Of a DNA stretch of 64,000 nucleotides, positions 24,448 to 45,545 are shown one piece after another. The translations under genes were made by a program, and so were the position numbers. The notes beneath the pieces were generated by a model. That model did not search any database and was not told the DNA's origin. It saw only the letters and a list, made by a program, of their open reading frames with translations. Numbering within the stretch: position 1 is the stretch's first letter; each line of letters begins with the position of its first letter. This DNA comes from an uncultured delta proteobacterium. Lineage in GTDB: Bacteria > Desulfobacterota > Binatia > UBA9968. The stretch is taken from NCBI GenBank assembly GCA_963760795.1, contig CAVXEP010000001.1:168818-232817 (forward strand), in the 5' to 3' direction.

Positions 24448-24698
24448 GGCGGAGTCCTCCTGATAGTGTGACGCGAACCGATTCATAGCGCGGAACTGAC
24501 GGCGATTGAAAGAGCGGCGGAGCGGAAACCAAAGAGGAGAAGACATTTCACCAGAGAGGATACAGAGATCGCAGAGTGGAGGATTCGGAGTGAGATTGAA
24601 TTTTCTCGCGGAACCGCCGGCTCGGCTTTACTTGAACTGTCTATAGCTTTCCTTTAGCGTTTACGGAATTTCTGCAAGAAAGTTGAGTCGTGATATCG

Positions 24699-25037
24699 AT
24701 GAATTGTCCAAAATGCCAACCCGCCACGCTGGCGGAGTTTAAGATCGAAGGGGTCTCGGTGGACCGCTGTTCCACTTGCGGCGGTATATGGTTCGACGCT
24801 CAGGAGCTGAGCCGGCTGCTCGCCGAAGATGCGCGCCAAGTGGCGGAGTTGCGCCGGGGCGGTAACGGCGCTCGATTGGATGATAAACGGGGCCGCTGTC
24901 CGCGCGACTCGGCGGAGCTGCTGCGGATGTACAGCGCCATCGACCGGAGCGTGACCTTGGACGCCTGTGCCGATTGTCATGGCATCTGGCTCGATGCCGG
25001 CGAATTCGCCAAGCTGTTCGCCGCGCGGCGGCCGTGA
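24699..25037 (+). CDS. zf-TFIIB domain protein (two zinc ribbons)
   Basis: CPKC...DRCSTCGGIWFD and CPRD...DACADCHGIWLDAGE. Confidence 0.85.
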   Translation: MNCPKCQPATLAEFKIEGVSVDRCSTCGGIWFDAQELSRLLAEDARQVAELRRGGNGARLDDKRGRCPRDSAELLRMYSAIDRSVTLDACADCHGIWLDAGEFAKLFAARRP

Positions 25038-25213
25038 GAATTCAATTGTGAGTCGGCGTGGCGCCATGTTAGAAGCCGAAAGACTATTCCGGTGAGGAGA
25101 CTAAGCAAATGGTAAAGCGCGAAGTTGGGTTGGCGCCGCAGGTTGGACCCTGTGACGGCAAAGGCGATGCGCGGCGCGGATGGCAAATTACAGATTCCAG
25201 AATGGGCCATGGG

Positions 25214-26209
25214 ATGATCGCTAAAACCTTTGCTTTCGTTAGATCGCGCGCCAGAGCGTCGCGGCTTTGGCTGTTCGTTCTGTTAGCGCTAACGCCGTCG
25301 ACGACCATGGCGGCGCAGGCGGCGCGCGACTTGAAGGAGGTCAAAGTCGCTTATCCGCCGTCGATGGCGTCGGTTACTTTGATGACCGGGATCAAGCAGC
25401 GATTTTTCGACGAGCAAGGGCTACGGCCGGTTCTGCTCGTCATCTCCAGCGATCTCGCGTTAAAGAGCCAGGTAGTCGGGGAGATCGACTACACGCTGTT
25501 TGGCGGCGGCTCCGGCATGCTGGCGGCCGCCCAGGGATTGCCGATCAAGAATGTTCATCTGCCGCATAAGTTTGCCGACCTGACCCTAGTGGCGCGGCCG
25601 GAATTCAAGTCCGTCGCCCAGCTGCGCGGCAAGAAGATCGGCGTCAGCAGCTTCTCCGGCAGCGTTTATTCCTCCACTCGTGCCATGCTATCGGCGGGCG
25701 GTCTCGACCCCGACAAGGATGTGGTGATCATTCCAATGGGCCGGGAGCCGATCCGGCTGCAAGCGCTGTTTGCCGGCAGTATCGACGCGACGCCGCTGCC
25801 CGTGCCGCTGCACGCCATCGCGGAAGAGAAAGGCTACAGCCTGCTCGCCGACATCGAAGGTAAATTCGAAGTGCCGTTCAGCGGCATCACCGTGACGGAT
25901 AAGAAACTCAGGGAGAATGCCGATGAGGTGAAGCGATTTATTCGCGCGATGGTCAAGGCCGGCAGTTTTTTCCTGAGCCATCGCAGCGAGTCGGTGGCAC
26001 TCTACATGGACTGGTTGAAACTTTCGAAATCGATCGCTGAGAACGCTTACACGCGATCGATCAAGACCGTCAGCCCGGATGGCTTGGGCAAGGATAGCGC
26101 GATCAAGAATCAACTCGGGCTGATCAAGCAGACCACGGGGAAAGACGTGAAGCCGGAGGATGTCATCGATTTTACCCTGTTGCGGCAAGTGTTGGCGGAA
26201 GTGAAATGA
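25214..26209 (+). CDS. NitT/TauT family ABC substrate-binding protein
   Basis: FFDEQGL, QLRGKKIGVS, GLDPDKDV, DFTLLRQV; start uncertain. Confidence 0.85.
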   Translation: MIAKTFAFVRSRARASRLWLFVLLALTPSTTMAAQAARDLKEVKVAYPPSMASVTLMTGIKQRFFDEQGLRPVLLVISSDLALKSQVVGEIDYTLFGGGSGMLAAAQGLPIKNVHLPHKFADLTLVARPEFKSVAQLRGKKIGVSSFSGSVYSSTRAMLSAGGLDPDKDVVIIPMGREPIRLQALFAGSIDATPLPVPLHAIAEEKGYSLLADIEGKFEVPFSGITVTDKKLRENADEVKRFIRAMVKAGSFFLSHRSESVALYMDWLKLSKSIAENAYTRSIKTVSPDGLGKDSAIKNQLGLIKQTTGKDVKPEDVIDFTLLRQVLAEVK

Positions 26210-27321
26210 CGAAGCCGCAACCAAAAAGAAGAATGGCCGCAAAGAACGCAAAGGGCGCAAAAGAATCGGAGTCGATGACTGCGGACAACGAAAGAGCTTT
26301 GCGCACGAAAAAACTCCGGCTGCATAGCCGCGCGGTCATCTTACTCGCTGTGATTCTGTTCGCCTGGGCCGGCGTCGCTGCCGCGCAGACCGTCGTATTA
26401 AAACCGGAAAAAAACCGCCTGGAAGTCGCGATGGCGGGTACCGGTTCAACGAGCTTGCCCTTGTTGGTGACTTTGGAAAGCGGCTATTTCAGCAAGCGCG
26501 GTCTCACCGTCAATCTCAATCAAGTCAGCGCCAGTGTGTCGGTGCAGGGCGTGATCTCCGGCACCATCGACATTTACCAAGGCGGCGCGGCGGCGATCGC
26601 CGGCAATCTCGCCGGCGCGGATATCATTTACGTCGCCGCCGCCGTCGACAAAAGCTCGCTCAATCTGTTCGGTCAGAAGGGCATCACGACGTTTGAAGCG
26701 CTGCGTGGCAAGGCGATCTCGACCACGTCGCCGGGCGCATTCGGCGAAATCGCCGTCCGTGGCACGGCTCGCCGTATGGGTTTGGAGATGGGCAAGGATA
26801 TTAAGCTGCTCTACCATCGCACGCCGGCGGAAGCGCTCTCGACATTTCTCCTCGGCAACGCCGAAGGGCTGGTGATCACGCCGCCGCAGACCGATATGGC
26901 CAAGCAAAAGGGCTATCCAATGATCATCGATTATTTCAAAGAGGGCTTCAAAATCATCGGACCGGGAACTTCGCTGACGCGCGAGTTCGCGCAGAAATAT
27001 CCTAATACAATCAAGGCCTATTTGATGGCTTATCTCGACGGCCTGCGGCGGACCATCGACGACGAGGAGTACGCCAAGAAGATCTGCGCGAAATATACCA
27101 AGTTGACCGATGTAAATATTTTGACTGAAACCTATCAGCAGGGGTTACGCGTGTGGAACCGCGATATGACCGTCGACCCGGCGGCGATCCGTAACGTGCT
27201 CGACGACTCGTCCGATGGCAAAGCCAAGAACGCCGACCCGAAACGGTTTTACGACAACTCGCTGATTCAACAGGTCAACCGCGATCATGCCGCGAAGCTG
27301 TTTCCCGGGGAAATTCGCTAG
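26206..27321 (+). CDS. NitT/TauT family ABC substrate-binding protein
   Basis: GYFSKRGL, LRGKAI, ADPKRFYDNS; ATGA overlap with the previous gene. Confidence 0.85.
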   Translation: MTKPQPKRRMAAKNAKGAKESESMTADNERALRTKKLRLHSRAVILLAVILFAWAGVAAAQTVVLKPEKNRLEVAMAGTGSTSLPLLVTLESGYFSKRGLTVNLNQVSASVSVQGVISGTIDIYQGGAAAIAGNLAGADIIYVAAAVDKSSLNLFGQKGITTFEALRGKAISTTSPGAFGEIAVRGTARRMGLEMGKDIKLLYHRTPAEALSTFLLGNAEGLVITPPQTDMAKQKGYPMIIDYFKEGFKIIGPGTSLTREFAQKYPNTIKAYLMAYLDGLRRTIDDEEYAKKICAKYTKLTDVNILTETYQQGLRVWNRDMTVDPAAIRNVLDDSSDGKAKNADPKRFYDNSLIQQVNRDHAAKLFPGEIR

Positions 27322-27379
27322 AAGAAGTAAGGGTGAGGGGTAAGGAGTAGAAGTCAGGAGTCAGGAGGTTGAGCGGTTT

Positions 27380-28387
27380 ATGGTTATGAGATTTTCACTT
27401 CGGGGAATTGTCTGGGGGTCGGCGCTGCTGGCCTTTTTCATTGCCAATGCCGGTGCGCAGACGGGCAAGCCGGAAAAGAAGAGTCTCGATATCGCCGTGG
27501 CGGCGTTCGCCCATACGACGATGCCGCTTTTGATCGCCCATGAGGCGGGCTATTTCGCGAAATACGGGCTCAGTGTGAACATCAGCGCGGTCAGCGCAGC
27601 TGTCGCAGTGCAGGGGTTGATCTCCAGCAAGATCGATATTTACCAGGGCGGGTCGGCGGCGATGATGGCGACGCTCGCCGGTGCGGATATTATTTATGTC
27701 GCCGCCGGCGTCGATAAGAGTTCGCTCATGCTGTTCGGCCAGAAAGGCGTCACCAGCTTCGATGCCTTGCGCGGCAAGACGGTGGCGACGACCTCGCCCG
27801 GCGCTTTCGGCGAGATCGCCATGCGCGGGACGGCACGGAAGTACGGTATGGAGATTCCCAAGGACATCAAGTTGATGTTTCACGGTACGCCCGCGCAGGC
27901 GTATTCGACGTTTACGATGGGCAACTCTGACGCCATGATCAACACGCCGCCGCAATCCGACATTGCCAAGCAAAAGGGCTATCCGGTGATCGTCGATTTC
28001 TACAAGGAAGGATTGAAAATCATCGGCCCTGGCACCGCGGTGACGCGCGAGTTCGCGCAAAAAAATCCCAACACCATCAGAGCATTTTTGATGGGACTGT
28101 TGGACGGCGTTAAACGCGCCATCGACGACGAAGAGTATGCCAGCAAGCTCGAATCAAAATACTCCAAAGTCACCGACGCCAAAATCCTCGCTGATAATTA
28201 CCAACAAGGATTGCGTGTCTGGAACAAGGATCTGACCGTCGATCCGGCGGCGATCCGGGTCGTGCTCGACGATGCGCCGGATGGCCGAGGCAAGGGCGCC
28301 GATCCGAAACGCTTCTACGACAATTCGTTTATTCAGGCGGTGAACCGCGACTATGCGTCGAAGCTGTTTCCAGGGGAAGTTAAATAA
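27380..28387 (+). CDS. NitT/TauT family ABC substrate-binding protein (tandem paralog of the upstream gene)
   Basis: Shares long blocks with 26206..27321 (IDIYQGG, TTSPGAFGEIA, QQGLRVWN, DPKRFYDNS). Confidence 0.88.
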   Translation: MVMRFSLRGIVWGSALLAFFIANAGAQTGKPEKKSLDIAVAAFAHTTMPLLIAHEAGYFAKYGLSVNISAVSAAVAVQGLISSKIDIYQGGSAAMMATLAGADIIYVAAGVDKSSLMLFGQKGVTSFDALRGKTVATTSPGAFGEIAMRGTARKYGMEIPKDIKLMFHGTPAQAYSTFTMGNSDAMINTPPQSDIAKQKGYPVIVDFYKEGLKIIGPGTAVTREFAQKNPNTIRAFLMGLLDGVKRAIDDEEYASKLESKYSKVTDAKILADNYQQGLRVWNKDLTVDPAAIRVVLDDAPDGRGKGADPKRFYDNSFIQAVNRDYASKLFPGEVK

Positions 28388-28547: not shown

Positions 28548-28919
28548 ATGACTCTTGAGAAGGCGGTAATATCGTATTCAGTGGTTCTTATTGTGCTGCT
28601 GGCACTAATGGTCTGGATGCTATTGCGGCACTGGGCGGTGAAGCGGCGCAAAGCCCAGGCGGCCAACCCAGGCGCCGGCGCGGTCGAGCAAACGGGATCG
28701 CGACCTATAGATTGGAGCGGCACGATAAGTAAATTGCGGCCGGACAATGTTCTCACCGGTGAGATGTGGGTGAAGGCGAGCATCGCAGCTTTCATTGCGC
28801 TTTGCGCCGGCACCATCGTTGTTGTGTTCGTTTTTCCGCTCGGCGCGGCGGCGGCGGCGATTGCCTCCTTTGCCGCGGTGGCCGTAATCGTCGGTCTATT
28901 TCTAATCCTGCTGGACTAA
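28548..28919 (+). CDS. Hypothetical membrane protein
   Basis: Three hydrophobic segments; fills the gap between flanking genes. Confidence 0.6.
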   Translation: MTLEKAVISYSVVLIVLLALMVWMLLRHWAVKRRKAQAANPGAGAVEQTGSRPIDWSGTISKLRPDNVLTGEMWVKASIAAFIALCAGTIVVVFVFPLGAAAAAIASFAAVAVIVGLFLILLD

Positions 28920-28938: not shown

Positions 28939-30114
28939 TTAATTTCGGGTTGGCAAGTAAGCTACCGAATCGATTTCCACGGAGCAGCGCGGCGATAGCT
29001 CGTCGACGACCACGGTTAAGCCAGCGGGCATGGTGCGCGAGCGGCTGTGGGCGGCGAAGAAGCTTTGATAGGCTTCGGCGAATTCAACGCGATTAGATCC
29101 TTCAACTAAATACACAGTGGTCTTGACGATATCGTTGAGAGTGCCGCCGGCGGCTTCGACGATGTCTTTGCTGTGGCGCAGTGTCGCTTCGGTTTGGCCG
29201 GCGAGGCTGCCTTCACATTCCACCACCCGGTCGAACGTTACGGCATCTTGGCCCGCGAGCAGTAGCCAATCGCCAACCCGCACCGATTGCGAGAAAGAAC
29301 CGGGCGCTAAGCGCACCTGGGGACTGGTGACTATCTTCTGCTCACCGCGGTAGGCGATGGCCATGGAGCGCAACAGGATGTTTTCGCCGAGGCTGCGGAT
29401 GTAGATGCCGGAGTTGGGCGGGTAAGCATCGTCGGTGAATACGCCTTGGTAAACTTTCTTGCGCGCCTCGCCGTAGCCGGGACGGTGCTCGGTGCCGGGC
29501 ATGAACATGAAGGTGCGGCAGAGATTGCCGAGGCCGAGTTTGTGTCTGGCGAGAATCTTGCTGATGCGCGTGAGGACTTCGGTGGTTTGGCTTTGAATTG
29601 ACGACGGCGCGGCGATACGTCCGTCGCCATTTGCGGCGTCGGTACCAGAGAGAAAAACCCAATCGTCGACGCGCACGCCGTGACAACCGGCGCCGATGGA
29701 CAGCGGCAGATCGGCGATGTGAAATGTTTCGCGATCTTCGCTGCTGGTGGCGATGGCATCCATACGCACTAGGCAGCCGCCGTCGAGGCCATTGACGCCG
29801 ACGAAATTTACAGCTGGCGCATCGTTGCCGAAGCGATCTCGCAGCGTCTTGGCCACGGCGGCAGCATCGTGGTAGTCGGAAAGATATACCGCGAGACTTA
29901 TCAGGTCAGCCGATGATTGGCCGCAGGCGCGCAGCCCCATGTCGAGATTGACAAGACATTGGCGTGCTTGTTGTTCAGCGGACAGCGCGGCTCCGACGGT
30001 GCCATCCGGGCCGCGCGCATCTTGGGCGAGGAATGTGAATTCACCTGCCTGGACGCCTTGGCTAAATAGATTGGTTTCGGAGAAAAGGGTTTTCTGCTCT
30101 ATGGTTTGTGGCAT
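28939..30114 (-). CDS. Rid (YjgF/YER057c/UK114) family protein with three tandem domains
   Basis: Three repeats starting FSQGVQAG..FLAQD, CHGVRVD..FLSGTD and FSQSVRVG..LAGQD; IVKTTVYL; VEIDSVA. Confidence 0.85.
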   Translation of the reverse strand: MPQTIEQKTLFSETNLFSQGVQAGEFTFLAQDARGPDGTVGAALSAEQQARQCLVNLDMGLRACGQSSADLISLAVYLSDYHDAAAVAKTLRDRFGNDAPAVNFVGVNGLDGGCLVRMDAIATSSEDRETFHIADLPLSIGAGCHGVRVDDWVFLSGTDAANGDGRIAAPSSIQSQTTEVLTRISKILARHKLGLGNLCRTFMFMPGTEHRPGYGEARKKVYQGVFTDDAYPPNSGIYIRSLGENILLRSMAIAYRGEQKIVTSPQVRLAPGSFSQSVRVGDWLLLAGQDAVTFDRVVECEGSLAGQTEATLRHSKDIVEAAGGTLNDIVKTTVYLVEGSNRVEFAEAYQSFFAAHSRSRTMPAGLTVVVDELSPRCSVEIDSVAYLPTRN

Positions 30115-30180
30115 GGGTTTTTGTCACCTGCCGACGGCAACCACGGGGACTGACTTACGAAATCGACGCGGTGGAACCTA

Positions 30181-30843
30181 TCAATGGCCGTGGTTTTCCC
30201 ACACGGACATGCCGGCCCGGCAGCACAGGGCGTCTTGTTCGGGACGGTTGGCGCCGGCGATGCCGATGGCGCCGACGATGGTGACGCCGTTGACGATCGG
30301 CAGGGCGCCGGCTACCGGTAAGATCTTGCCGCGATGCGAAATCATTAGGCTGCGCAGCCAGGGCTGGCGCGCTTGCGGCACCAATTCAGTAGTTGAGACG
30401 TGAAACGCGGCGGCGGTGTAGGCCTTGTTGAACGCCAGCTCGGCGCTTCTCGCTTCGGCCTTGTCCATCTTGCCGACCGCTATGGGTGCGCCGGCCTCAT
30501 CGACCACCACGGCGGTGATCGCGCTGCCGACCAGGCTGGCGTACTCTTGGGCGGACTCGATCATCGCCCAAGCGGTAGCGAAGGGCACCGGGCCGATGGC
30601 CGCTTTGTTCTGGCGGAAGAATGCCGCGTTAACTTCGATGGCGTAGGCGTATTGGGCGGGAATATCCACGTCTTTGAATATCGCGTCCACTGGGCAGACG
30701 ATCTCGCACTGCTCGCAGTCGATGCAGACTTCAGGGTCGACGTAGAATTGCGGCGCACCCGGTTTGGTGTGGATGCAAGCCACCGGACAAACTTCGACGC
30801 AGGCGCCGTCGTTGGTACAAAGTTCGGTGATGATGTAGGGCAC
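30181..30843 (-). CDS. Dicluster ferredoxin fused to a GlcG/HbpS (haem-binding) domain
   Basis: N-terminal CTNDGACVEVCP and CIDCEQCEIVCP; C-terminal AVVVDEAG, MD, AFNKAYTAA, GAIGIAG..EQD. Confidence 0.85.
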   Translation of the reverse strand: MPYIITELCTNDGACVEVCPVACIHTKPGAPQFYVDPEVCIDCEQCEIVCPVDAIFKDVDIPAQYAYAIEVNAAFFRQNKAAIGPVPFATAWAMIESAQEYASLVGSAITAVVVDEAGAPIAVGKMDKAEARSAELAFNKAYTAAAFHVSTTELVPQARQPWLRSLMISHRGKILPVAGALPIVNGVTIVGAIGIAGANRPEQDALCCRAGMSVWENHGH

Positions 30844-30863
30844 TGGGGTCCTCGCTTCGCTCG

Positions 30864-30944
30864 AAATATCAAATTACAGATTCCAAATTACATATTCCAG
30901 AGTTCAAATCGGCAATTTGAAATCTGAAATTTGTAATTTGTAAT
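30864..30944. repeat. AT-rich heptamer repeats arranged as an imperfect inverted repeat
   Basis: aaatatc aaattac agattcc aaattac atattcc ... aatttg aaatctg aaatttg taatttg taat in a GC-rich background. Confidence 0.7.
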
Positions 30945-30954
30945 CGCCGCAGCG

Positions 30955-31548
30955 CTAGCCGTCGGCGGCTAGCGGCAGATCGGTGTAGATCGCATCGGCA
31001 ACGTAAACCTCGGTGCCAAATTCGCGGCTGACCAGCCGGCCATTGCCATTCAATGTCCCCAAGCCTGCTTTGGCGGCCAGCGCGTCCACGTTGGCATCGC
31101 GCACTACTGTGGCGCGAAAGCCCAATTCGCGAATCCATGAACTCAAAACAAAAGTGATGAACAAGCCGTTTTGCACCGGCATTTGGCCGCCGATGCCTTT
31201 GGCTTGGCGCGGGTCGTAGTCGGCATGGACGGCGCACAGGATAGCAAACGGAAATTCGTTGCTTTCGCCATTGCCCGGTGGCGCGAGGGGGCGAGGGGAA
31301 CGATCGTCAAGCTTGGCGATGCCGATCAGCTCCGTGCCGAAGTACTTCGCCATGCCTTTGACATGGCTGGAGGTGATCTCGGGCGTGTGCAGCTCGGCTT
31401 TATTGGGGAAAATATTCCCCGCCGGTGCATTGCGGATCAGTTCCGTCACCGTATTAGTCAGATCGGCGGGCGGCGTATTGATGAAAAACTCCCAGAAGGG
31501 ATCGTCCTTATGAGAGTTCTTGCCGGGCCAGGGAAACTTCAAAGCCAC
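30955..31548 (-). CDS. Reductive dehalogenase-like domain protein lacking Fe-S motifs
   Basis: HVKGMAKYFGTELIGIAK, WIRELGFRA, AGLG..NGRLVSREFG, YTDLPLAAD align by eye with the neighbouring RdhA; ends before the Fe-S domain. Confidence 0.75.
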   Translation of the reverse strand: MALKFPWPGKNSHKDDPFWEFFINTPPADLTNTVTELIRNAPAGNIFPNKAELHTPEITSSHVKGMAKYFGTELIGIAKLDDRSPRPLAPPGNGESNEFPFAILCAVHADYDPRQAKGIGGQMPVQNGLFITFVLSSWIRELGFRATVVRDANVDALAAKAGLGTLNGNGRLVSREFGTEVYVADAIYTDLPLAADG

Positions 31549-32859
31549 TTACGGTTCCCGCTTGACGAATCGATTGGTGTTTTCCTTAAGCGGCGCATAA
31601 TAGCCGACGTTCCCGGCGACGGCTTTGGCGCCGGCTTTCTCATGCGACGCGTTGCAGCCGGCGACAGTGCAGGCATGCTCGCCGGGTTTGACGCCGGAGT
31701 CGTAGCCCAGCCAAGTCACCCGCGCGTTACGCACCAAACCCCAGAATCGGTCATCGACCCACTTGAGAAACTTCACCAGCACCGGCCGCAGCACGTAGGG
31801 GCAATAGTGCAATGAAGACGTCGCCATGTTGTGCCACCATGTTTTCGGTTTGGTGTATGGGCAGACCGTGGCGCAGGTCAGACAGCTGCCCCAGTGATCG
31901 TGCACATAGGGGCGCAGCTTGTAGCAGGTGAGCCAATTGATCTTGTATTTCTCGACGCCGTTGTGGACGACCTTGTCGCCGACGGGGATGCTATTGGTCG
32001 GGCAGGTGTTGGCGCACTTGCGGCAGACTTTGCAGAAATCGTCGACGCCGATGTCGATTGGCTCATCACCCACCAGCGGCAGATCGGTCATGATCGGGTC
32101 GGGCATATGCACGCGGGCGCCGTATTCCTTGCTGATGACCAGCCCATTGCGGCCCAACTCGCCGACCCCGGAGGCCACGCCCACCGCTTGGGGCACGGCC
32201 ACGCCGCGTAGCGCCGTGTAACCGAGTTCTTTGATGTAACCTTCGAGGGCTTTCAGGATCATGTTGCCCTTGATTTGCGAGATGTGATAGGCGGCGTCGC
32301 CGATCAGATGGCGGTGCGCTTGCAGTTTGTTGTAGTCCCACGCGGTGGTCGCCATGATGATGTAGGGAAATTTGCGCGCCATTTGCTCCGGCGTGTGGGC
32401 TGCGTATTCGTCCTTGGCAGTGCCGTCTTGGACATAGCGGCCGCCGCCGGCAGCATAAAGAAAATTTGGATGGGCCTTGGCGATGCGGACGATATCCGCG
32501 CCCATGTAGTGCGCCACCGCTTTGATATGGCGCGCCATCGCGGCGGGGTCGTTCACCGGAACTTTCTGCGGATTGATTTTGCCCTTGGCCGCCTGGTTGA
32601 CCACCGTGCTCAAAAAATGTCTGCGGTCGGCGAAATGGTTTGGCGCCGATACCCTGGTCAGTGGATCTTTGGATACCGTGTTGTGGTACCAATTGAACAA
32701 CGGCTTACCCAGTTCGCCGCGCTGGTTTTTCGGGTGCGGCGATTGATTCATGTCGACGTTTTCAAACTTGCCGACGATGCGCACGGTGCGGCCGAGATAG
32801 GGCGTCGGGAACTCGGCGCTGGCGTTGGTGTTTGGGTTTGGAGTTTCAACTTTGGACAT
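31549..32859 (-). CDS. Reductive dehalogenase-like cobalamin/2x[4Fe-4S] protein without a Tat leader
   Basis: HIKAVAHYMGADIV, YIKELGY, GVGELGRNG, TDLPL..DEPID, FCKVCRKCANTCP and C..CLTCATVCPY. Confidence 0.85.
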   Translation of the reverse strand: MSKVETPNPNTNASAEFPTPYLGRTVRIVGKFENVDMNQSPHPKNQRGELGKPLFNWYHNTVSKDPLTRVSAPNHFADRRHFLSTVVNQAAKGKINPQKVPVNDPAAMARHIKAVAHYMGADIVRIAKAHPNFLYAAGGGRYVQDGTAKDEYAAHTPEQMARKFPYIIMATTAWDYNKLQAHRHLIGDAAYHISQIKGNMILKALEGYIKELGYTALRGVAVPQAVGVASGVGELGRNGLVISKEYGARVHMPDPIMTDLPLVGDEPIDIGVDDFCKVCRKCANTCPTNSIPVGDKVVHNGVEKYKINWLTCYKLRPYVHDHWGSCLTCATVCPYTKPKTWWHNMATSSLHYCPYVLRPVLVKFLKWVDDRFWGLVRNARVTWLGYDSGVKPGEHACTVAGCNASHEKAGAKAVAGNVGYYAPLKENTNRFVKREP

Positions 32860-32904
32860 TGTTTGCCCTCCGGTTAAATTAGACAGAGAAGAGAGACTAG
32901 TTTT

Positions 32905-33306
32905 TTAGCCCTGATAAGCCGCCAGCGCCACTTCAGCGCATTTTTGATCTTGATCGTCGGTGCCGCCCGAGACTGCGATGGCGCCGACGACGTTGCCGCC
33001 TTCCACCACCGGTATGGCGCCGCCACCCGGCATTACTTTGCCACTGCTCGATACCACCAGACTTTGAAACCAGGCCTGGTTCGCCACGCCGGCCAAGTCT
33101 TTGGTCTGCTGCTGGAAGCTAGCCGCAGTGTAACCTTTGTTGAGGGCGATCTCTACCGTGATCGGCCGCGCTTTGTCCATGCGCCCGAGCGCGATCATGC
33201 GCCCACTCTGGTCGACCACCACCGCCGTTACAGCAATGTCCAGTTGCGCCGCTTGGGTATGCGCGTTGCGCACCATCTGAATCGCTTTTTCTCCAGGTAT
33301 AGCCAT
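32905..33306 (-). CDS. GlcG/HbpS family haem-binding protein
   Basis: AVVVDQSG, RMD, ALNKGYTAA, GGAIPV..G.VVGAIAVSGG..DQD. Confidence 0.88.
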   Translation of the reverse strand: MAIPGEKAIQMVRNAHTQAAQLDIAVTAVVVDQSGRMIALGRMDKARPITVEIALNKGYTAASFQQQTKDLAGVANQAWFQSLVVSSSGKVMPGGGAIPVVEGGNVVGAIAVSGGTDDQDQKCAEVALAAYQG

Positions 33307-33648: not shown

Positions 33649-34725
33649 ATGCTGACCATCGACGCCGACGCTCACGTCATGGAAGGTCCGCGGACTTGGG
33701 AATATTGCGACCCATCGGAGCGCAAGTTCATGCCGGTGTTAGTCGATCCTGGCGCCGGCTCCGACCGGCAGTTTTGGCTGGTCGATGGCAAGATCCGCGG
33801 CCATGTGCGCCATGTGATCAAGTCGAAAGATTTTCATGCCCTCGCCGAAGCCAGTGGCCGCGACATGGTGGTGCCGCCGGAAGCGCAGCACCTCGAAGAT
33901 GTCCAGGCGCGCGTTCGCCACATGGACGAGATGGGCATCGATATTCAGGTGATGTATCCGACTATCTTCATCCAGCAGGTCACCGACAAACCCGAGTTCG
34001 AAGTGCCGATCTGCAAAGCCTACAACCGCTGGATGGCCGATGTCTGGAAACAGGGTAACGGCCGGCTGCGCTGGGTCTGCGTGCTGCCGCTGCTGAGCCT
34101 GCAAGATTCCATCGACATGCTGCCATGGTGCAAGGAAAACGGCGCGGTGGCGGTGTTGATGCGGCCCTTCGAAGGCGATCGCTTGATCCAGGATCCTTAT
34201 TTCTATCCGCTCTATGAAGCGATGAGCAAACATGATCTGCCCGTGGGGATGCATATCGGCAACGGCAATCCTGGGTGTTTGGACATCACGCGTCAGCGCG
34301 TCGGCTATGGCGCCGGCTTCTGGAGCATGTCAGCTAACACCGCCGGCGCCTGCCACGCGGTGATTACCAGCAAGCTGCCGGAAGTTTTTCCCAAGCTGCG
34401 CTTCGGTTTCATCGAAGCCTCGGCGCAGTGGATTCCCTGGGTCTTCAAAGACATCAAGCGGCGCGCCGAAGGGCGCAAGCTGCCGGATAATTTTTTCGAC
34501 ACCTACCGTCTCTACGTGTCTTGCTATAGCAGCACCGACGACATCGAATATATCGCGCAGTATTCCACCGAAAATACCCTGATGACCGGCACCGACTACG
34601 GCCATGTCGACATGTCCGTCGAGATCGACGCGCTACGGACGCTGGAAAAGAACGGCAAAGTGCGGCCCGAGCTGGCGCGGAAGATTTTGCACGACAATCC
34701 AGCGCGGTTTTACGGGATTCAATAA
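33649..34725 (+). CDS. Amidohydrolase 2 family protein (decarboxylase/hydratase-like)
   Basis: IDADAHVME, MDEMGID, AYNRW, GMHIG, GTDYGH, DNPARFY. Confidence 0.9.
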   Translation: MLTIDADAHVMEGPRTWEYCDPSERKFMPVLVDPGAGSDRQFWLVDGKIRGHVRHVIKSKDFHALAEASGRDMVVPPEAQHLEDVQARVRHMDEMGIDIQVMYPTIFIQQVTDKPEFEVPICKAYNRWMADVWKQGNGRLRWVCVLPLLSLQDSIDMLPWCKENGAVAVLMRPFEGDRLIQDPYFYPLYEAMSKHDLPVGMHIGNGNPGCLDITRQRVGYGAGFWSMSANTAGACHAVITSKLPEVFPKLRFGFIEASAQWIPWVFKDIKRRAEGRKLPDNFFDTYRLYVSCYSSTDDIEYIAQYSTENTLMTGTDYGHVDMSVEIDALRTLEKNGKVRPELARKILHDNPARFYGIQ

Positions 34726-34729
34726 TACC

Positions 34730-34765
34730 GTTCAAATCGTTCAAGCGGTTCAAAATGTTCAAACC
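34730..34765. repeat. 9-bp-period tandem repeat (GTTCAANNN)x4
   Basis: gttcaaatc gttcaagcg gttcaaaat gttcaaacc after the stop codon; same style as 1849-1884. Confidence 0.75.
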
Positions 34766-34787
34766 GTCAGAATCGGAGCTCGAGAAA

Positions 34788-35777
34788 ATGCGGAGAGCTG
34801 TGATTCGTTTCGCTGCATTGTTCGTTTTCACCACAGTATTTGTCGAAACGAATGCGTTTGCCCAGCTCACCAGGCTCAACGTCGGTTATGTCGGCATTAC
34901 GTCGGATAACGCGGCGGCGTTCATTGCGCGCGACACCGGCATTTATGCGCGCAACGGGCTGGACGTGCAGCTGATCTACATGAACAGCGGCAGCACGGCG
35001 GTGGCGGCTTTGATCAGTGGCGACACCCCGATCACGCAGACCGCCGGGCCGGGCGTTATCAACGCGACGATGAACGGTTCGGACACCGTGATGATCGCCG
35101 GTGGCAACGTGACATTGGATTACTGGATGCTCAGCCGGCCGGAGATCAAGACTGCGGAGCAGTTGAAGGGCGGCGCGGTGGCGATCAGCCGCTTCGGCTC
35201 GGCTTCCGACTTCATCGTGCGCTACGCTTTGCAGCGGCTTGGCTTAACTCCGGTGAAGGATGTGGCGATACTGCAAGTCGGATCGCTCACCGAACGCCTT
35301 GCGGCGATGGAAACCAAACGCGTGCAGGCGACGGTCTTAGCGCCGCCGGCGATGTATCAAGCGCAGATGCGCGGCTTCAACATGCTTGCGGACATCTCTG
35401 CGCTCGGTTTGCCGTATCAGGCCACCGGCGTAGCGACGACGCGAAAATTCATTCGTGAACGGACCGACGTTGTCCGCCGCTACATCAAAGCCCATGTCGA
35501 GGCCGTGCACCGCTTCAAGACCGACCGCGAAACCTCGATGAAAGTACTGGCCAAGTCTCTAGCGATCTCCGACAAACAGTTGCTCGAAAGAACCTATGAC
35601 GGCGCCATCGCCGAGCATAAACTGCCGGCCAAGCAGTATCCGACCCTAGAGGGATTGAAAACGATCATGGCGAGCGACCCGAAAGCCAAGGGAGCGAAGG
35701 CCGAAGAGTTTGTCGATCTGCGATTCATCAAAGAGCTCGACGACAGCGGCTACTTCGACAAGCTGTATAAGAGATAA
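34788..35777 (+). CDS. NitT/TauT family ABC substrate-binding protein
   Basis: Signal peptide; GIYARNGLDVQL; FVDLRFIKELDDSGY. Confidence 0.88.
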   Translation: MRRAVIRFAALFVFTTVFVETNAFAQLTRLNVGYVGITSDNAAAFIARDTGIYARNGLDVQLIYMNSGSTAVAALISGDTPITQTAGPGVINATMNGSDTVMIAGGNVTLDYWMLSRPEIKTAEQLKGGAVAISRFGSASDFIVRYALQRLGLTPVKDVAILQVGSLTERLAAMETKRVQATVLAPPAMYQAQMRGFNMLADISALGLPYQATGVATTRKFIRERTDVVRRYIKAHVEAVHRFKTDRETSMKVLAKSLAISDKQLLERTYDGAIAEHKLPAKQYPTLEGLKTIMASDPKAKGAKAEEFVDLRFIKELDDSGYFDKLYKR

Positions 35778-37606: not shown

Positions 37607-38578
37607 CTATTTTGCTCCCAGCTTCTTAAAGAACCCATCTTTCTCCAGTTCCGCGACGAATCTCATGTCGACAAAATCATCCGGCTTGGCTTGGCGCGCT
37701 TTAGGATCGCTTACTGCTAGCTCGGCGAGGATTGTTTCGATGCCGCGGCGACTCGTGTAGGGGACCGATTCGATCAACTCGCGATATTCTTTGTGGGTTT
37801 CTTCGAGAATCTCCAGGTCGGTGACGCGGGTGTATTTTTGCAATGCTTTTAGCGCGATCGGCTTGTTGGATTTGAAAAGATGCACGGCTTCGGCGTAGGC
37901 GCGCATGAAGCGGCGGACGATTTCCGGATTGCTGCGAATGTAGGCGCGGGTCGCGCCGACGGCGATGGAAACATACTCCGGGCCGTCTTTCGCCGGGGTC
38001 GCGAGGTCGACCAGGCCGGCCTTGCGCCCCCGAATGGTCGTTGGCGACGACAGCGGGCCGGCGTCGATCCTGCCGGCGGCGAGGGCGATCAAGATGTTCG
38101 GCACTTCACCCAAAGGAACTATCTCGTAGTCGCCCGGTTTGAGCCCGGCCTGGTTGAGCACGTAGAGCGTGACGGTGTGGGTCGATGAGCCGACGCGAGT
38201 GACGCCGATGCGTTTGCCGCGCAAATCGCTGACGCGCTTGAACTCCGGGCGCGCCATGAAAGTGAAGGGAAAGCGATTGGTCACGCCGGCGATGAGCACC
38301 ACATCGGAACCGGTTAGGTTGGACTGAATCGTGTTGCGCCCGTCGACATAGGAGATCGCGACCTCGCCGGCAAGAATGGTTTGAATGATCAGGGAGCTCG
38401 ACGGAATATGCAGCAGCTCGACGTCGAGGCCGTTTTTCTTGAAGAGTCCCTCGTCATGGGCGATCCAGATGCCGCTCTGGCCGGCGGCGATGGCCGACCA
38501 GTTGACGCGCACTTTCATTTGCGCCGAGGCCGGTTCAACGAAAGTCAGCAGGGCTAACACTGTAAATAACTATCTCAT
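37607..38578 (-). CDS. NitT/TauT family ABC substrate-binding protein; in-frame TAG at codon 3 after the SD-preceded ATG (alternative GTG start at 38560)
   Basis: GGAGG-N5-ATG AGA TAG; GLFKKNGLDVEL, DLRGKRIGV, FVDMRFVAELEKDGF. Confidence 0.8.
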
Positions 38579-39027: not shown

Positions 39028-39764
39028 ATGGGTAGACTCGACGGACAAGTGGCGATCGTCACCGGCGGGAGCCGGGGCATCGGACGGGCGGTGGCGCTGA
39101 GGTTTGCGCGGGAGGGGGCGCGGGTGGCGATCACGGCGGTGCAGGATCGCGATACGCTGGAAAAAGCCGAGCGGGATATCACCGCGCTGGGCGGCGATTG
39201 TATCGCCATGCTCGCCGACGTGACGCGCCGTGGCGACATCGACAAGCTGGTGCAAACGATTCTCGCCAAGTGGGGGCGCATCGATGTGCTGGTGAATAAC
39301 GCCGGCATTCTGCGACTGGCACCGCTGGAAAATATCACCGAAGAACGCTGGGACGATACGCTGCGGCGTGCACTTGAAGGGCACGTTCAATTGCACCCAA
39401 GCGGTGATCCCGATCATGAAGCAACAGCAGAAAGGCAAGATCATCAACATCGCCGCGCCTTCGGCATTGCGCGGCTCCTACGGCGTCGCCGACTATGCGG
39501 CGGCCAAGGGCGGCATCATCGCCTTGACCAAAAATGCCGCCAACGAACTCAAGTCGCACAACATTCAGGTCAATTGCATCTCGCCGGTGGCCGACACGCG
39601 CATGACCGAAGAGCTGACCAGGTTTCGCCGCGAACAGTTGGGCATCGCCCGGCGCGAACGGGAGATTCGTGCCGCCCGAAGCGATCGCGCCGGCGTTTTT
39701 GTTTTTTGCCACCAGCGACTCCGATTATGTCTCCGGGCAGTTGTTGGAAGTGGGAAGGACGTGA
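39028..39764 (+). CDS. SDR family oxidoreductase (FabG-like), two apparent +1 frameshifts (near 39365 and 39650)
   Basis: TGGSRGIG, NNAG, YAAAK, VNCISP; third frame gives FLFFATSDSDYVSGQLLEV. Confidence 0.85.
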
Positions 39765-39927
39765 GAATGGAGTGTTGGAGTAGTGGAGTAATGGAGGAAT
39801 GGCTGATGCGGGACGCTTCGACTAGTCAGCATGAACGGAAATACGCGTCTTGTCCGTTCGTCCCTGAGCCTGTCGAATGGACTCCGAAGATATGGTCGGT
39901 TTCCTGATTCGAGGACGAGACTAATGC

Positions 39928-40872
39928 ATGACTTTGGCTGCGATTCTACTCTTATGGTCATCGCCATGTTGGTTGTTCCATCCGTCGTCCTTTAGCCAGG
40001 GGTTGGAGAAGATTCGCATCGTCTATGCCAGCCGCGGGCTGCCGTTTTTCAGCGCGTTCGTCGCCAAGGAGATGAAGTTTTATCAAAAGCATGGGCTGGA
40101 GGTGGAGTTGATCCAGATGGCGCCGCGCATTGCCATAACGGCGTTGGCGACCAGCCAGGTCGACTATTCGCTCAACATCGGTTCGACCATGCGGGCGGCG
40201 ATGCGCGGCGCGCCGGTGCGGGCGGTGGCGTCGAGCACGGTGGCGCCATTTTTCGCCTTGGTCACCAAGGAGCCCAATATCGCCGCGCTCAAGGGTAAAA
40301 TCCTCGGCGTGTCGGACTTCGGCGGCACCAATTACCAAGTCACCCGGATGGTTTTGACACACTACGGTCTGGCGCCGCTCAAGGACGTCCAGATATTGTC
40401 CATCGGCGAAGAGAAGGTCATTCTCGACGCCTTGCTCTCGGGCCGAATCCACGGCGCCATGCTGTCGCCGCCCTGGCCCTTCGAAGCGGAGAAACATGGC
40501 TTCAAAATAATTCTCAAAGCATCGGACGTGGTGCAGTTTCCCTTCGCCGGCATCTGTACGTACACGGACAAGATCAAGAACAACCGCGAGCAGATCAAGA
40601 AAGTGATCCGCGCCGAGCTCGACGCGCTTCGCTTCATTCGTGAGCGGCGCCAGGAAAATATCGATATGATCGTCAAGCTGTTCAAGATGGACAAAGAAAT
40701 CGCGCAGAAGTCCTATGACTTCGCGTCGGTATTCTACAGCCGCGACGCGCGTATCCAACCCGAGTCGGCGCGCCGGCTGATCGCATTGGAAAAAGAAAAC
40801 GGCGACATCAAAGGCGATGTCGATGTCGGCCACATCGCCGATCTTTCGCTAGTCGAGGAAGTGCTGCGGTAG
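39928..40872 (+). CDS. NitT/TauT family ABC substrate-binding protein
   Basis: Signal peptide; FYQKHGLEVEL; ALKGKILGVS; DLSLVEEV. Confidence 0.88.
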   Translation: MTLAAILLLWSSPCWLFHPSSFSQGLEKIRIVYASRGLPFFSAFVAKEMKFYQKHGLEVELIQMAPRIAITALATSQVDYSLNIGSTMRAAMRGAPVRAVASSTVAPFFALVTKEPNIAALKGKILGVSDFGGTNYQVTRMVLTHYGLAPLKDVQILSIGEEKVILDALLSGRIHGAMLSPPWPFEAEKHGFKIILKASDVVQFPFAGICTYTDKIKNNREQIKKVIRAELDALRFIRERRQENIDMIVKLFKMDKEIAQKSYDFASVFYSRDARIQPESARRLIALEKENGDIKGDVDVGHIADLSLVEEVLR

Positions 40873-44351: not shown

Positions 44352-44534
44352 CCACAAAGGGCACATAGATCACAAAATAGTGAATCGGAATCAGATGATT
44401 GACCGCAAAGTACGCAATGAACGCAAAAAAATTCCAAGAGGAAATCCGACGTAGGGGCGAATCATGATTCGCCCTGGGGGGTGGCAGTGGCGTGGCTCTC
44501 TGGTAACGACATTCGAATTGATGAGAACACATAC

Positions 44535-45545
44535 ATGATTATCGGCGACCGCCATGTAGGGGCGACCGGCGGGTCGCCCTTCCGATGGACAAAAGGCGCA
44601 GCGAAATTGCTGCTGCTGGCACTTCTGCTGGGGATCGCGCCCAAGGTCGGCGCTCAACCAGGAAAGCCGCTGGAGAAAGTCCGCCTCACGGTGCCGGCGA
44701 AGTCCCTGACCTTCGTGCCGTATTATTTCGGCAAGGCGCAGGGGATCTTCGCGCGGGAAGGGATCGACCTTGAGATCATCGTCATGCGCCCGCCTCTGGG
44801 CGTCACGGCGTTACTGGCGGGCGAGCTTGATTATTCCGCGGCCGGCGGCCTGTCGGTGCGCGCCGCGCTGAAGGGCGCGCCGTTGCGCACGATTACATTT
44901 ATTCAAACGCGGTTGAGTTTCAGCCTGATCGGCCAGCCAGGCATGGCTGCGGCGCGGATCAAGAACGTTTCGGTGAGCGGTATCGGTTCCCTCGCCCACT
45001 ACGCCGCGCAGGCGATGATGAAACGCTTGGGCAATGAGAAGGTCGCCTATGTTTCGACCAACACCACGGCCAACAGCTATACGGCGCTGCTCGGCAAAGC
45101 CACCGATGCGGTGATCCTGACGCCGCCGTATACTTCGATGGCGACGTTGGCGGGCTACGCCGATCTCGGCAACACCTACGATCTGCGTGACTTGCAGGGC
45201 GGATTGGTGGCGCGCTTGTCTTCCATTCACGAGCAGCGCGAGCGGGTCAAGGCGGTGATCCGCGCGACCTTGCGCAGCATGGAAGCGATCGTCAAAAACG
45301 ACAATGAAGTGGTGGCCTATTTGCAGAAAGATTTCGGCCTGGAGCCCAGGATCGCCGCGGATACCTCGAAGATCATCAAACAGCTAGTCAATGCCGACGG
45401 CGATCTCGAAGAGCCGGTGCTGAAATCGATCATCGATAAATTGCGCGCGGAATCCGGCATCGCCGCGGAGATTCCGTCGGAGCGGTTGGTGGATATGTCG
45501 CTGTTGCGCGAGGTTAGAGCCGAGTTAAAGAAACGTGCGCCGTAG
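44535..45545 (+). CDS. NitT/TauT family ABC substrate-binding protein
   Basis: GIFAREGIDLE; VDMSLLREV; start uncertain. Confidence 0.85.
   Translation: MIIGDRHVGATGGSPFRWTKGAAKLLLLALLLGIAPKVGAQPGKPLEKVRLTVPAKSLTFVPYYFGKAQGIFAREGIDLEIIVMRPPLGVTALLAGELDYSAAGGLSVRAALKGAPLRTITFIQTRLSFSLIGQPGMAAARIKNVSVSGIGSLAHYAAQAMMKRLGNEKVAYVSTNTTANSYTALLGKATDAVILTPPYTSMATLAGYADLGNTYDLRDLQGGLVARLSSIHEQRERVKAVIRATLRSMEAIVKNDNEVVAYLQKDFGLEPRIAADTSKIIKQLVNADGDLEEPVLKSIIDKLRAESGIAAEIPSERLVDMSLLREVRAELKKRAP

Follow-up and report, generated by a model that had tools for sequence, protein, structure and literature searches.

Gene content and conservation of the locus

The window examined here is a stretch of 64,000 nucleotides from the genome of an uncultured Binatia bacterium (G000:C1:168818-232817; genome of 6.58 Mb in 35 contigs), and our subject is a group of genes on its minus strand, at positions 28939-33306, built around a homolog of the reductive dehalogenase (RDH) subunit RdhA. 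An earlier note on this DNA had described five co-oriented, closely spaced genes as a single operon for a cytoplasmic reductive system; all five are open reading frames (ORFs) where it had placed them, with intergenic gaps of 45, 0, 111 and 66 bp. In order of reading, they are as follows.

33306..32905, minus strand: HbpS-like protein of the DUF336/GlcG family (PF03928), 133 amino acids; first gene of the module
32859..31549, minus strand: RdhA-like catalytic subunit, 436 amino acids; TIGR02486 and an iron-sulfur (Fe-S) dicluster
31548..30955, minus strand: RdhN, an RdhA-like core paralog without Fe-S, 197 amino acids; start codon directly after the RdhA stop
30843..30181, minus strand: Fd::DUF336, a 7Fe-type ferredoxin fused to a DUF336/HbpS-like domain, 220 amino acids
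30114..28939, minus strand: triple-Rid protein (YjgF/RidA fold, three PF01042 domains), 391 amino acids; a lineage-specific fifth gene

The first four genes (hereafter the module) comprise two paralog pairs, the RdhA-like protein with RdhN and the HbpS-like protein with the DUF336 half of the fusion. As the note had also held, the ORFs and family scans of the locus reveal neither an rdhB-like membrane anchor gene nor an NAD(P)H:ferredoxin reductase gene or domain in the operon. A promoter scan found sites no commoner than in shuffled sequence (1 against a mean of 2.5), and terminator-like sites were not above the shuffles either (10 against a mean of 5.7, standard deviation 2.3).

Scanning one genome per species yielded 39 related loci, in which partners were sought by tblastn with the window proteins. 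Counted over loci whose sequence reaches far enough, the HbpS-like gene precedes the RdhA-like gene in every case (36 of 36 with 550 bp or more upstream), RdhN follows it in every case (36 of 36 with 600 bp or more downstream) and Fd::DUF336 is adjacent in 29 of 31 (1450 bp or more downstream). L010 and L012 are the exceptions; there the fusion gene sits on another contig of the same genome (88% and 85% identical), where it adjoins NMT1 genes of the kind that flank the operon in the window. Because the four genes recur in the same order across other genomes, the arrangement is far beyond chance, and the conserved unit is these four genes without Rid. The five-gene operon of the earlier note thus holds for its first four members; of the 26 loci that extend 1300 bp or more past Fd::DUF336, only 6 have the triple-Rid gene directly after it (in L017 the contig ends within a further, partial copy), and the gene is therefore a minority accessory, an add-on of this lineage, rather than the general binder of substrate or product that had been proposed.

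The sequences of the module are strongly constrained. Mean column identity is 92% for the HbpS-like protein (34 orthologs), 84% for Fd::DUF336 (29) and 75% for the RdhA-like protein (13); a protein search returned 491 relatives of the last, the best 120 of which are all at least 68% identical, with identities of 68-98% across many genomes. Beyond these there is a gap: in a 50%-cluster library the nearest relatives are P0123 and P0126 at 55-56% and P0129 at 41%, followed by ordinary RdhA homologs at about 34%. Records of the close relatives are titled uncultured soil "delta proteobacterium", Thermodesulfobacteriota or Binatia metagenome-assembled genomes; as the class that holds one of the loci, a Binatia chromosome (L035), also includes a genome titled "Acidiferrales" at NCBI, phylum names in record titles overstate the taxonomic spread.

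The RdhA-like subunit and its active-site residues

The RdhA-like protein falls in the RdhA branch and is not a QueG; it is soluble and has no leader. Against the reductive dehalogenase model TIGR02486 it scores 156.7 bits, narrowly under the cut-off of 160.35 (153.2 bits, also under, in the whole-genome search), as compared with 58.8 bits against the QueG model TIGR00276 (cut-off 200); the host genome encodes a separate, true QueG elsewhere (G000:C22:133748-134746, 404.5 bits), and identity with QueG was rejected on these scores. Searches of the Protein Data Bank with phmmer give the same ranking (PceA 1.3e-26, NpRdhA 2.6e-25, QueG 1.8e-12), and a homolog used as query in the ESM Atlas returned RdhA-like clusters only. 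An AlphaFold2 (AF2) model built on a 96-sequence alignment reached a predicted local distance difference test score (pLDDT) of 82.8 and a predicted template-modelling score (pTM) of 0.84, the only low-confidence regions being residues 63-79 and 391-436 (13 close homologs alone gave pLDDT 34.6). Foldseek with this model places NpRdhA at the top (E 7.3e-20, TMq 0.63), followed by the RDH complex 8q4h (1.6e-18) and PceA (1.4e-17), with QueG far weaker (3.4e-8, TMq 0.36).

Phylogenetic placement was examined in a quick maximum-likelihood tree with 105 rows. These comprise the 96 sequences of alignment A2 together with the host QueG, a second RDH-like gene of the host and seven paralogs taken from other genomes. 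The tree recovers the query clade as 15 rows on a long stem (0.67; SH-aLRT 100), joined with support 100 to a sister clade of five paralog rows. Both clades nest among homologs that bear the canonical catalytic Tyr and Arg/Lys, and QueG forms a long-branched outgroup, so that model scores, fold and tree alike separate the protein from QueG, a grouping the earlier note had named as fatal to its proposal. The second RdhA-like gene of the host (L002, G000:C2:158197-158925; TIGR02486 114.7 bits, open frame of 311 amino acids) keeps the canonical Tyr and Arg and is placed elsewhere in the tree.

Both [4Fe-4S] motifs (C276/C279/C282/C286 and C312/C326/C329/C333) lie C-terminal to the corrinoid core; they are invariant in 13 clade members and invariant or at least 90% conserved in the 96 homologs. 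The first 50 residues contain no RR pair, hence no leader for twin-arginine translocation (Tat) is seen, and no 19-residue window exceeds a hydrophobicity of 1.6, which bears out the cytoplasmic type that had been assigned. The respiratory RdhAs (PceA, 4UQU; 8Q4H) share the superfamily and the Fe-S arrangement with the module, but differ from it in their Tat leader, their RdhB and their link to the membrane, and a respiratory identity was rejected on the missing leader, hydrophobic window and RdhB-like gene. Superfamily-conserved core residues are retained (G231, G233, E234, R237, T258, D259).

The catalytic residues are a different matter. In NpRdhA, Tyr426 and Lys488 form the conserved proton-donating catalytic dyad, and the K488Q variant is reported to be inactive (Halliwell et al., PMC7565698). 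The 96-sequence alignment allows 79 outgroup homologs to be compared with 13 clade members. At the Tyr426 column, 72 of the former have Tyr and all 13 of the latter have Gln195; at that of Lys488 and PceA Arg305, the outgroup has Arg in 64 and Lys in nine of its 79, against His251 throughout the clade (13 of 13); and that of PceA Asn272 is Asn in 45 of 79 and Arg218 in all 13. A phmmer alignment sets Tyr426 opposite Gln195, Lys488 opposite Met252, PceA Arg305 opposite His251 and Asn272 opposite Arg218. The catalytic Tyr of PceA, which we take to be Tyr246, also aligns to Gln195. There is no Lys or Arg within residues 250-256, and the 55-56% relatives P0123 and P0126 have His at the basic column too. 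Dehalogenation by the module is doubtful because the Tyr-Lys/Arg dyad is replaced by invariant Gln195 and His251; the "dehalogenase or reductase" of the earlier note accordingly survives as an enzyme of the RdhA branch, with its dehalogenase part in doubt.

The clade has, in addition, invariant residues of its own: His182, Arg183, His184, Asp188, Tyr191, His192, Gln224, Pro253, Asp254 and Pro255. Tyr191 stands four residues, or one helical turn, upstream of the canonical Tyr column. A further clade feature, Cys397-x4-Cys402-x3-His406, lies near the C-terminus; it is common to the 37-43% identical paralogs described below, and absent from the Tyr/Arg-bearing relatives P0143 and P0137. The tail that contains it (residues 391-436, window positions 31549-31686, ending in PLKENTNRF) is strongly conserved yet modelled with low confidence, and could be a metal site or a docking peptide.

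The partner subunits

The stretch of the RdhA-like protein to which RdhN corresponds is the corrinoid-binding core, residues 60-265 (E 5e-21; 211 aligned columns, 28% identical); RdhN stops where the Fe-S domain begins. The family scan gave it no Pfam match, and TIGR02486 matches weakly (46.6 bits, model positions 119-196 only). Its orthologs (n=33) are 58-89% identical, with a mean column identity of 71%. Glu234 and Arg237 of the catalytic subunit (residues kept in 72 and 78, respectively, of the 79 outgroup homologs) lie opposite Thr165 and Gly168 of RdhN, and because these conserved residues are replaced RdhN is probably a cofactor-less shell. A relative of 603 amino acids, P0137, carries an Fe-S-less core fused in front of a complete enzyme, and for this reason RdhN is best read as the vestigial domain of the NpRdhA type made as a subunit of its own. 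A cold-seep survey states that long cytosolic RdhAs can act as monomers by virtue of this domain (PMC12219181); its separation here would show how two genes can give the architecture that NpRdhA has as a monomer.

The likeness to NpRdhA, BhbA and JtRdhA (4RAS, 6ZXU-6ZY1) extends to a leaderless, soluble chain in which the core is followed by two [4Fe-4S] motifs, and NpRdhA likewise has a second, cofactor-less copy of the core. The two types would be functionally analogous but differ in architecture, in that the vestigial core of NpRdhA is N-terminal in the same chain, whereas that of the module is a separate downstream gene product of 197 amino acids. The module also lacks a fused NAD(P)H reductase, has its ferredoxin fused to DUF336 and includes a second DUF336 protein. 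In the catabolic RdhAs (NpRdhA/BhbA) the C-terminal NAD(P)H reductase is optional. NpRdhA can be driven through ferredoxin (PMC7565698), and a ferredoxin is present in the module too. Also comparable are "simplified cytosolic" RdhA-like proteins of about 395 amino acids without the vestigial domain, from Desulfobacterota and Chloroflexota (PMC12219181), which are likewise short and leaderless and come from the same broad taxa; the accessible text of that paper makes no mention of a separate core paralog, a DUF336 partner or altered catalytic residues. QueG, a class-III cobalamin enzyme, resembles the module in its two [4Fe-4S] clusters and cytoplasmic location and, probably, in its cofactor and its non-dehalogenating chemistry; its sequence and fold match is much weaker.

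Both GlcG/HbpS-fold domains named in the earlier note, one of them ferredoxin-fused, are present as described: genes 1 and 4 match PF03928 at 97.3 and 88.9 bits (cut-off 25) over profile positions 4-127/128 (E 8.9e-28 for the HbpS-like protein; E 3.5e-25 for residues 89-212 of the fusion), and the domain in the fusion is 40% identical to the stand-alone protein (E 9e-35). Residues 1-84 of the fusion are the ferredoxin (NF045480 FdxA_Actino, 68.4 bits). Full-length PF03928 is what the module proteins have in common with the solved members of the DUF336/GlcG family (OrfY 2A2L, PduOC 5CX7, HbpS 3FPV, EfgA 6BWS, NahX 9JTH), the HbpS-like protein being closest to OrfY of K. pneumoniae (2a2l, 1.5e-17), followed by NahX (9jth, 1.4e-12), the PduO C-domain (5cx7, 7.9e-12) and then EfgA. 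OrfY, the nearest solved relative, comes from a B12-dependent glycerol dehydratase (dha) operon. B12 adenosyltransferases are the companions of both OrfY and PduOC; PduOC is octameric, with His18 as its haem ligand, and HbpS binds aquo-cobalamin besides haem (PMC4923194), in keeping with the note's statement that members of this fold are reported to bind haem and cobalamin. The link between DUF336 proteins and B12 enzymes is real; the parts in cofactor handling and electron relay that the earlier note gave to the two domains are putative. The host genome has seven PF03928 genes, five of them outside the operon, and its CobS gene scores 44.8 bits, over the cut-off.

The ferredoxin has a wider association. 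In G291 (same family) and G848, paralogs of 37-43% identity each precede a stand-alone 7Fe ferredoxin of 82 amino acids, at loci with no RdhN and no DUF336; since each is so accompanied, this supports the view that a ferredoxin is what generally supplies electrons in the wider clade. The paralogs are in tandem among periplasmic binding-protein genes (L044, G291:C61, 5057-9396; L061, G848:C661), and upstream of the former lie an EutA-like gene (E 3.8e-117) and a cupin gene.

Proposed function, alternatives and genomic surroundings

We propose that the locus probably encodes a cytoplasmic, four-subunit class-III cobalamin reductase of the RdhA/QueG superfamily with a non-canonical active site. 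The RdhA-like protein would be the catalytic subunit, carrying a corrinoid and two [4Fe-4S] clusters, and RdhN, itself non-catalytic, would complete a pseudo-dimer with it and so correspond, as a separate chain, to the NpRdhA vestigial core. The ferredoxin half of Fd::DUF336 would deliver low-potential electrons to the Fe-S chain, and the two DUF336 domains may assemble into a hetero-oligomer by which the ferredoxin is kept close to the enzyme, or may handle or re-reduce the tetrapyrrole cofactor. As judged from the alignments, a polar cluster (His182, Arg183, His184, Asp188, Tyr191, His192, Arg218, Asp254) would surround Gln195 and His251. Given the replaced dyad and this new, invariant polar cluster, we think that the substrate is a polar small molecule, probably non-halogenated or unusually activated, and not a classical organohalide.

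To our knowledge, only two class-III cobalamin chemistries are established, reductive dehalogenation and epoxyqueuosine reduction. The clade described here keeps the cofactor scaffold with its dyad exchanged and is under strong purifying selection in soil bacteria, and it is because the dyad was exchanged under such selection that we regard it as a good candidate for a third. The stronger proposal, of a third class of class-III cobalamin enzymes in which a four-subunit reductase uses cob(I)alamin for a non-dehalogenating two-electron reduction (e.g. deoxygenation, or reductive C-O/C-N/C-S cleavage of a polar metabolite), is advanced tentatively, as a possibility somewhat short of an even chance. 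The module offers a defined, testable partnership for the DUF336/GlcG proteins found beside B12 enzymes (PduO, OrfY); were the proposal true, this would be the first case in which DUF336 proteins are shown to serve a B12 enzyme as dedicated partners for cofactor handling or reductive activation, and the widespread GlcG/DUF336 family would gain a biochemical role. Metagenome counts of RdhA-like genes as dehalogenation potential would be too high if the clade does something else. The combination was thought undescribed in the earlier note, and our literature searches found no paper on it: there was none describing the four genes together (the supplements of PMC12219181 might list clade members), none on reductive dehalogenase with Binatia or with GlcG, none in the DUF336/HbpS literature pairing DUF336 or HbpS with a dehalogenase, and no published description of DUF336 fused to a 7Fe ferredoxin or partnered with an RdhA-like enzyme.

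As the main alternative, the module might be a catabolic, cytoplasmic dehalogenase for natural soil organohalogens, with the same subunit roles and another proton donor (Tyr191, His192 or His251), a reading we consider rather unlikely. The nearest relatives in fold and sequence are NpRdhA and PceA, the RDH model falls just short of its cut-off, the clade is nested within homologs bearing Tyr and Arg/Lys, patchy accessory distribution is typical of catabolic genes and the invariant Tyr191 stands close to the canonical column; yet both dyad positions are exchanged in every clade member, replacement of the equivalent Lys488 abolishes NpRdhA activity, and the 68-98% identity across genomes seems unlike that of the usual RdhA paralogs, for which rapid diversification is the norm. 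Alternatively, the corrinoid could itself be the substrate, bound by the RdhA-like core for decyanation or dealkylation, cob(III)/cob(II) reduction or cofactor delivery, with DUF336 carrying the tetrapyrrole. The RdhA-like core shares the fold of nitroreductase-like B12 processors, DUF336 relatives are neighbours of B12 reactivases and adenosyltransferases (and aquo-cobalamin is a ligand of HbpS; PMC4923194), the HbpS-like protein is the very conserved member of the set and the unit is self-contained, with no conserved catabolic or transport neighbour across the 39 loci. We nonetheless hold this to be improbable: a housekeeping role should reach more of the sampled genomes than it does (see below), and an Fe-S domain with two clusters, together with an RdhA-like pocket, is what substrate-reducing enzymes have. 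A QueG-type epoxyqueuosine reductase, or another nucleic-acid-modifying enzyme, would account for the shared superfamily, the weak TIGR00276 match and a conservation resembling that of a housekeeping enzyme, but the score lies far below the model cut-off in a genome with its own high-scoring QueG, and the much weaker fold match and distant position of QueG in the tree make this very improbable.

Several observations weigh against the non-canonical four-subunit reductase that we prefer. We infer corrinoid binding by the RdhA-like protein from its family, fold and conserved core residues, and all subunit contacts, the electron path and the chemistry are likewise conjectural; complex prediction of the RdhA-like protein and RdhN with Fd::DUF336 gave scores of 0.00, 0.39 and 0.02 against a mark of 0.32, in runs made without controls, and speaks neither for nor against the complex. 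The residue mapping is drawn from sequence alignments, in which the placements by MAFFT and phmmer are one position apart at 251/252; Tyr191/His192 could serve as substitute proton donor, in which case dehalogenation would be possible. The His18 haem ligand of PduOC aligns to an invariant Ile9 in the HbpS-like protein, so the PduOC mode of haem binding is not conserved. Finally, the distribution is narrow and the neighbourhood uninformative. In a 401-genome sample of the window's phylum, 53 genomes matched at E <= 1e-20, with a close ortholog in the window's genome only; the 52 others had distant RdhA-like matches, the next-best being 43% identical (E 1.5e-93), and both Fd::DUF336 halves occurred in one gene only in the window's genome. 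The class of L035 gave orthologs (E <= 1e-100, 76-92% identity) in 7 of the 201 genomes sampled. The module is thus accessory and patchily distributed, for all the constraint on its sequence, and this patchiness argues for an accessory function that would fit a catabolic dehalogenase too. All-against-all clustering of flanking ORFs over the 39 loci revealed nothing conserved beyond the four genes, and no pointer to a substrate.

Public data give a hint that the five genes are transcribed. The stretch, or part of it, is present in 20 of the 24 public runs listed, from 13 studies of soil, bog, mine drainage, rhizosphere and sediment, and contigs from RNA libraries (four runs, three studies) fall on parts of all five genes, some without mismatch; one bridges the RdhA/RdhN junction (31514-31661) and two span the RdhN-Fd::DUF336 spacer (30521-30921 and 30860-31295). 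These contigs are short, the flanks are covered too and DNA carry-over is possible in such libraries; stretches without a contig carry no information.

In the triple-Rid protein, PF01042 matches in three stretches (E 4.3e-44), and RidA TIGR00004 scores 126.9 (cut-off 106.25). RidA deaminases use a conserved active-site Arg (RidA Arg105). The Arg of the "PAR" motif in PH0854 (2dyy) lies opposite Val in domain 1, Asn in domain 2 and Gly365 in domain 3; provided that this Arg is indeed the catalytic residue, the protein would have no canonical imine deaminase site in any of its domains.

Around the operon, NMT1/THI5-type solute-binding genes are dense (25109-28387, 34755-35777, 37607-38560, 39928-40872 and 44481-45545), with no genes for permeases or ATPases of the ATP-binding cassette (ABC) type seen beside them. 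The N-termini of five of seven were read, and all five carry signal peptides; as such genes are also very numerous in these genomes, they were rejected as a clue to the substrate. An Amidohydro_2 gene (33649-34725) diverges from the operon. A membrane protein of 123 amino acids (28548-28919, plus strand, KD19 maximum 2.88), with counterparts in two close loci (91% identity) and in three others (39-47%), is convergent with the Rid gene; it matches no family, and with its convergent orientation was discarded as a candidate RdhB.

A short-chain dehydrogenase/reductase (SDR) gene (39028-39907, plus strand), not a ferredoxin reductase, lies 5.7 kb from the HbpS-like gene and is split over two frames, the part from 39028 covering adh_short positions 1-115 and that at 39368-39907 positions 109-192; this implies a frameshift near 39370-39390, by assembly error or in a pseudogene. 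An SDR gene stands divergent beside the HbpS-like gene in 8 of the 39 loci. A 115-amino-acid protein with two TFIIB-type Zn-ribbons (24690-25037, plus strand; PF13453, E 4.4e-28) is encoded near the module in 7 of 39. Two apparently conserved ORFs proved to be antisense shadows, "orf137" (137 amino acids) of this Zn-ribbon gene and the N-terminal part of "orf267" of the SDR gene.

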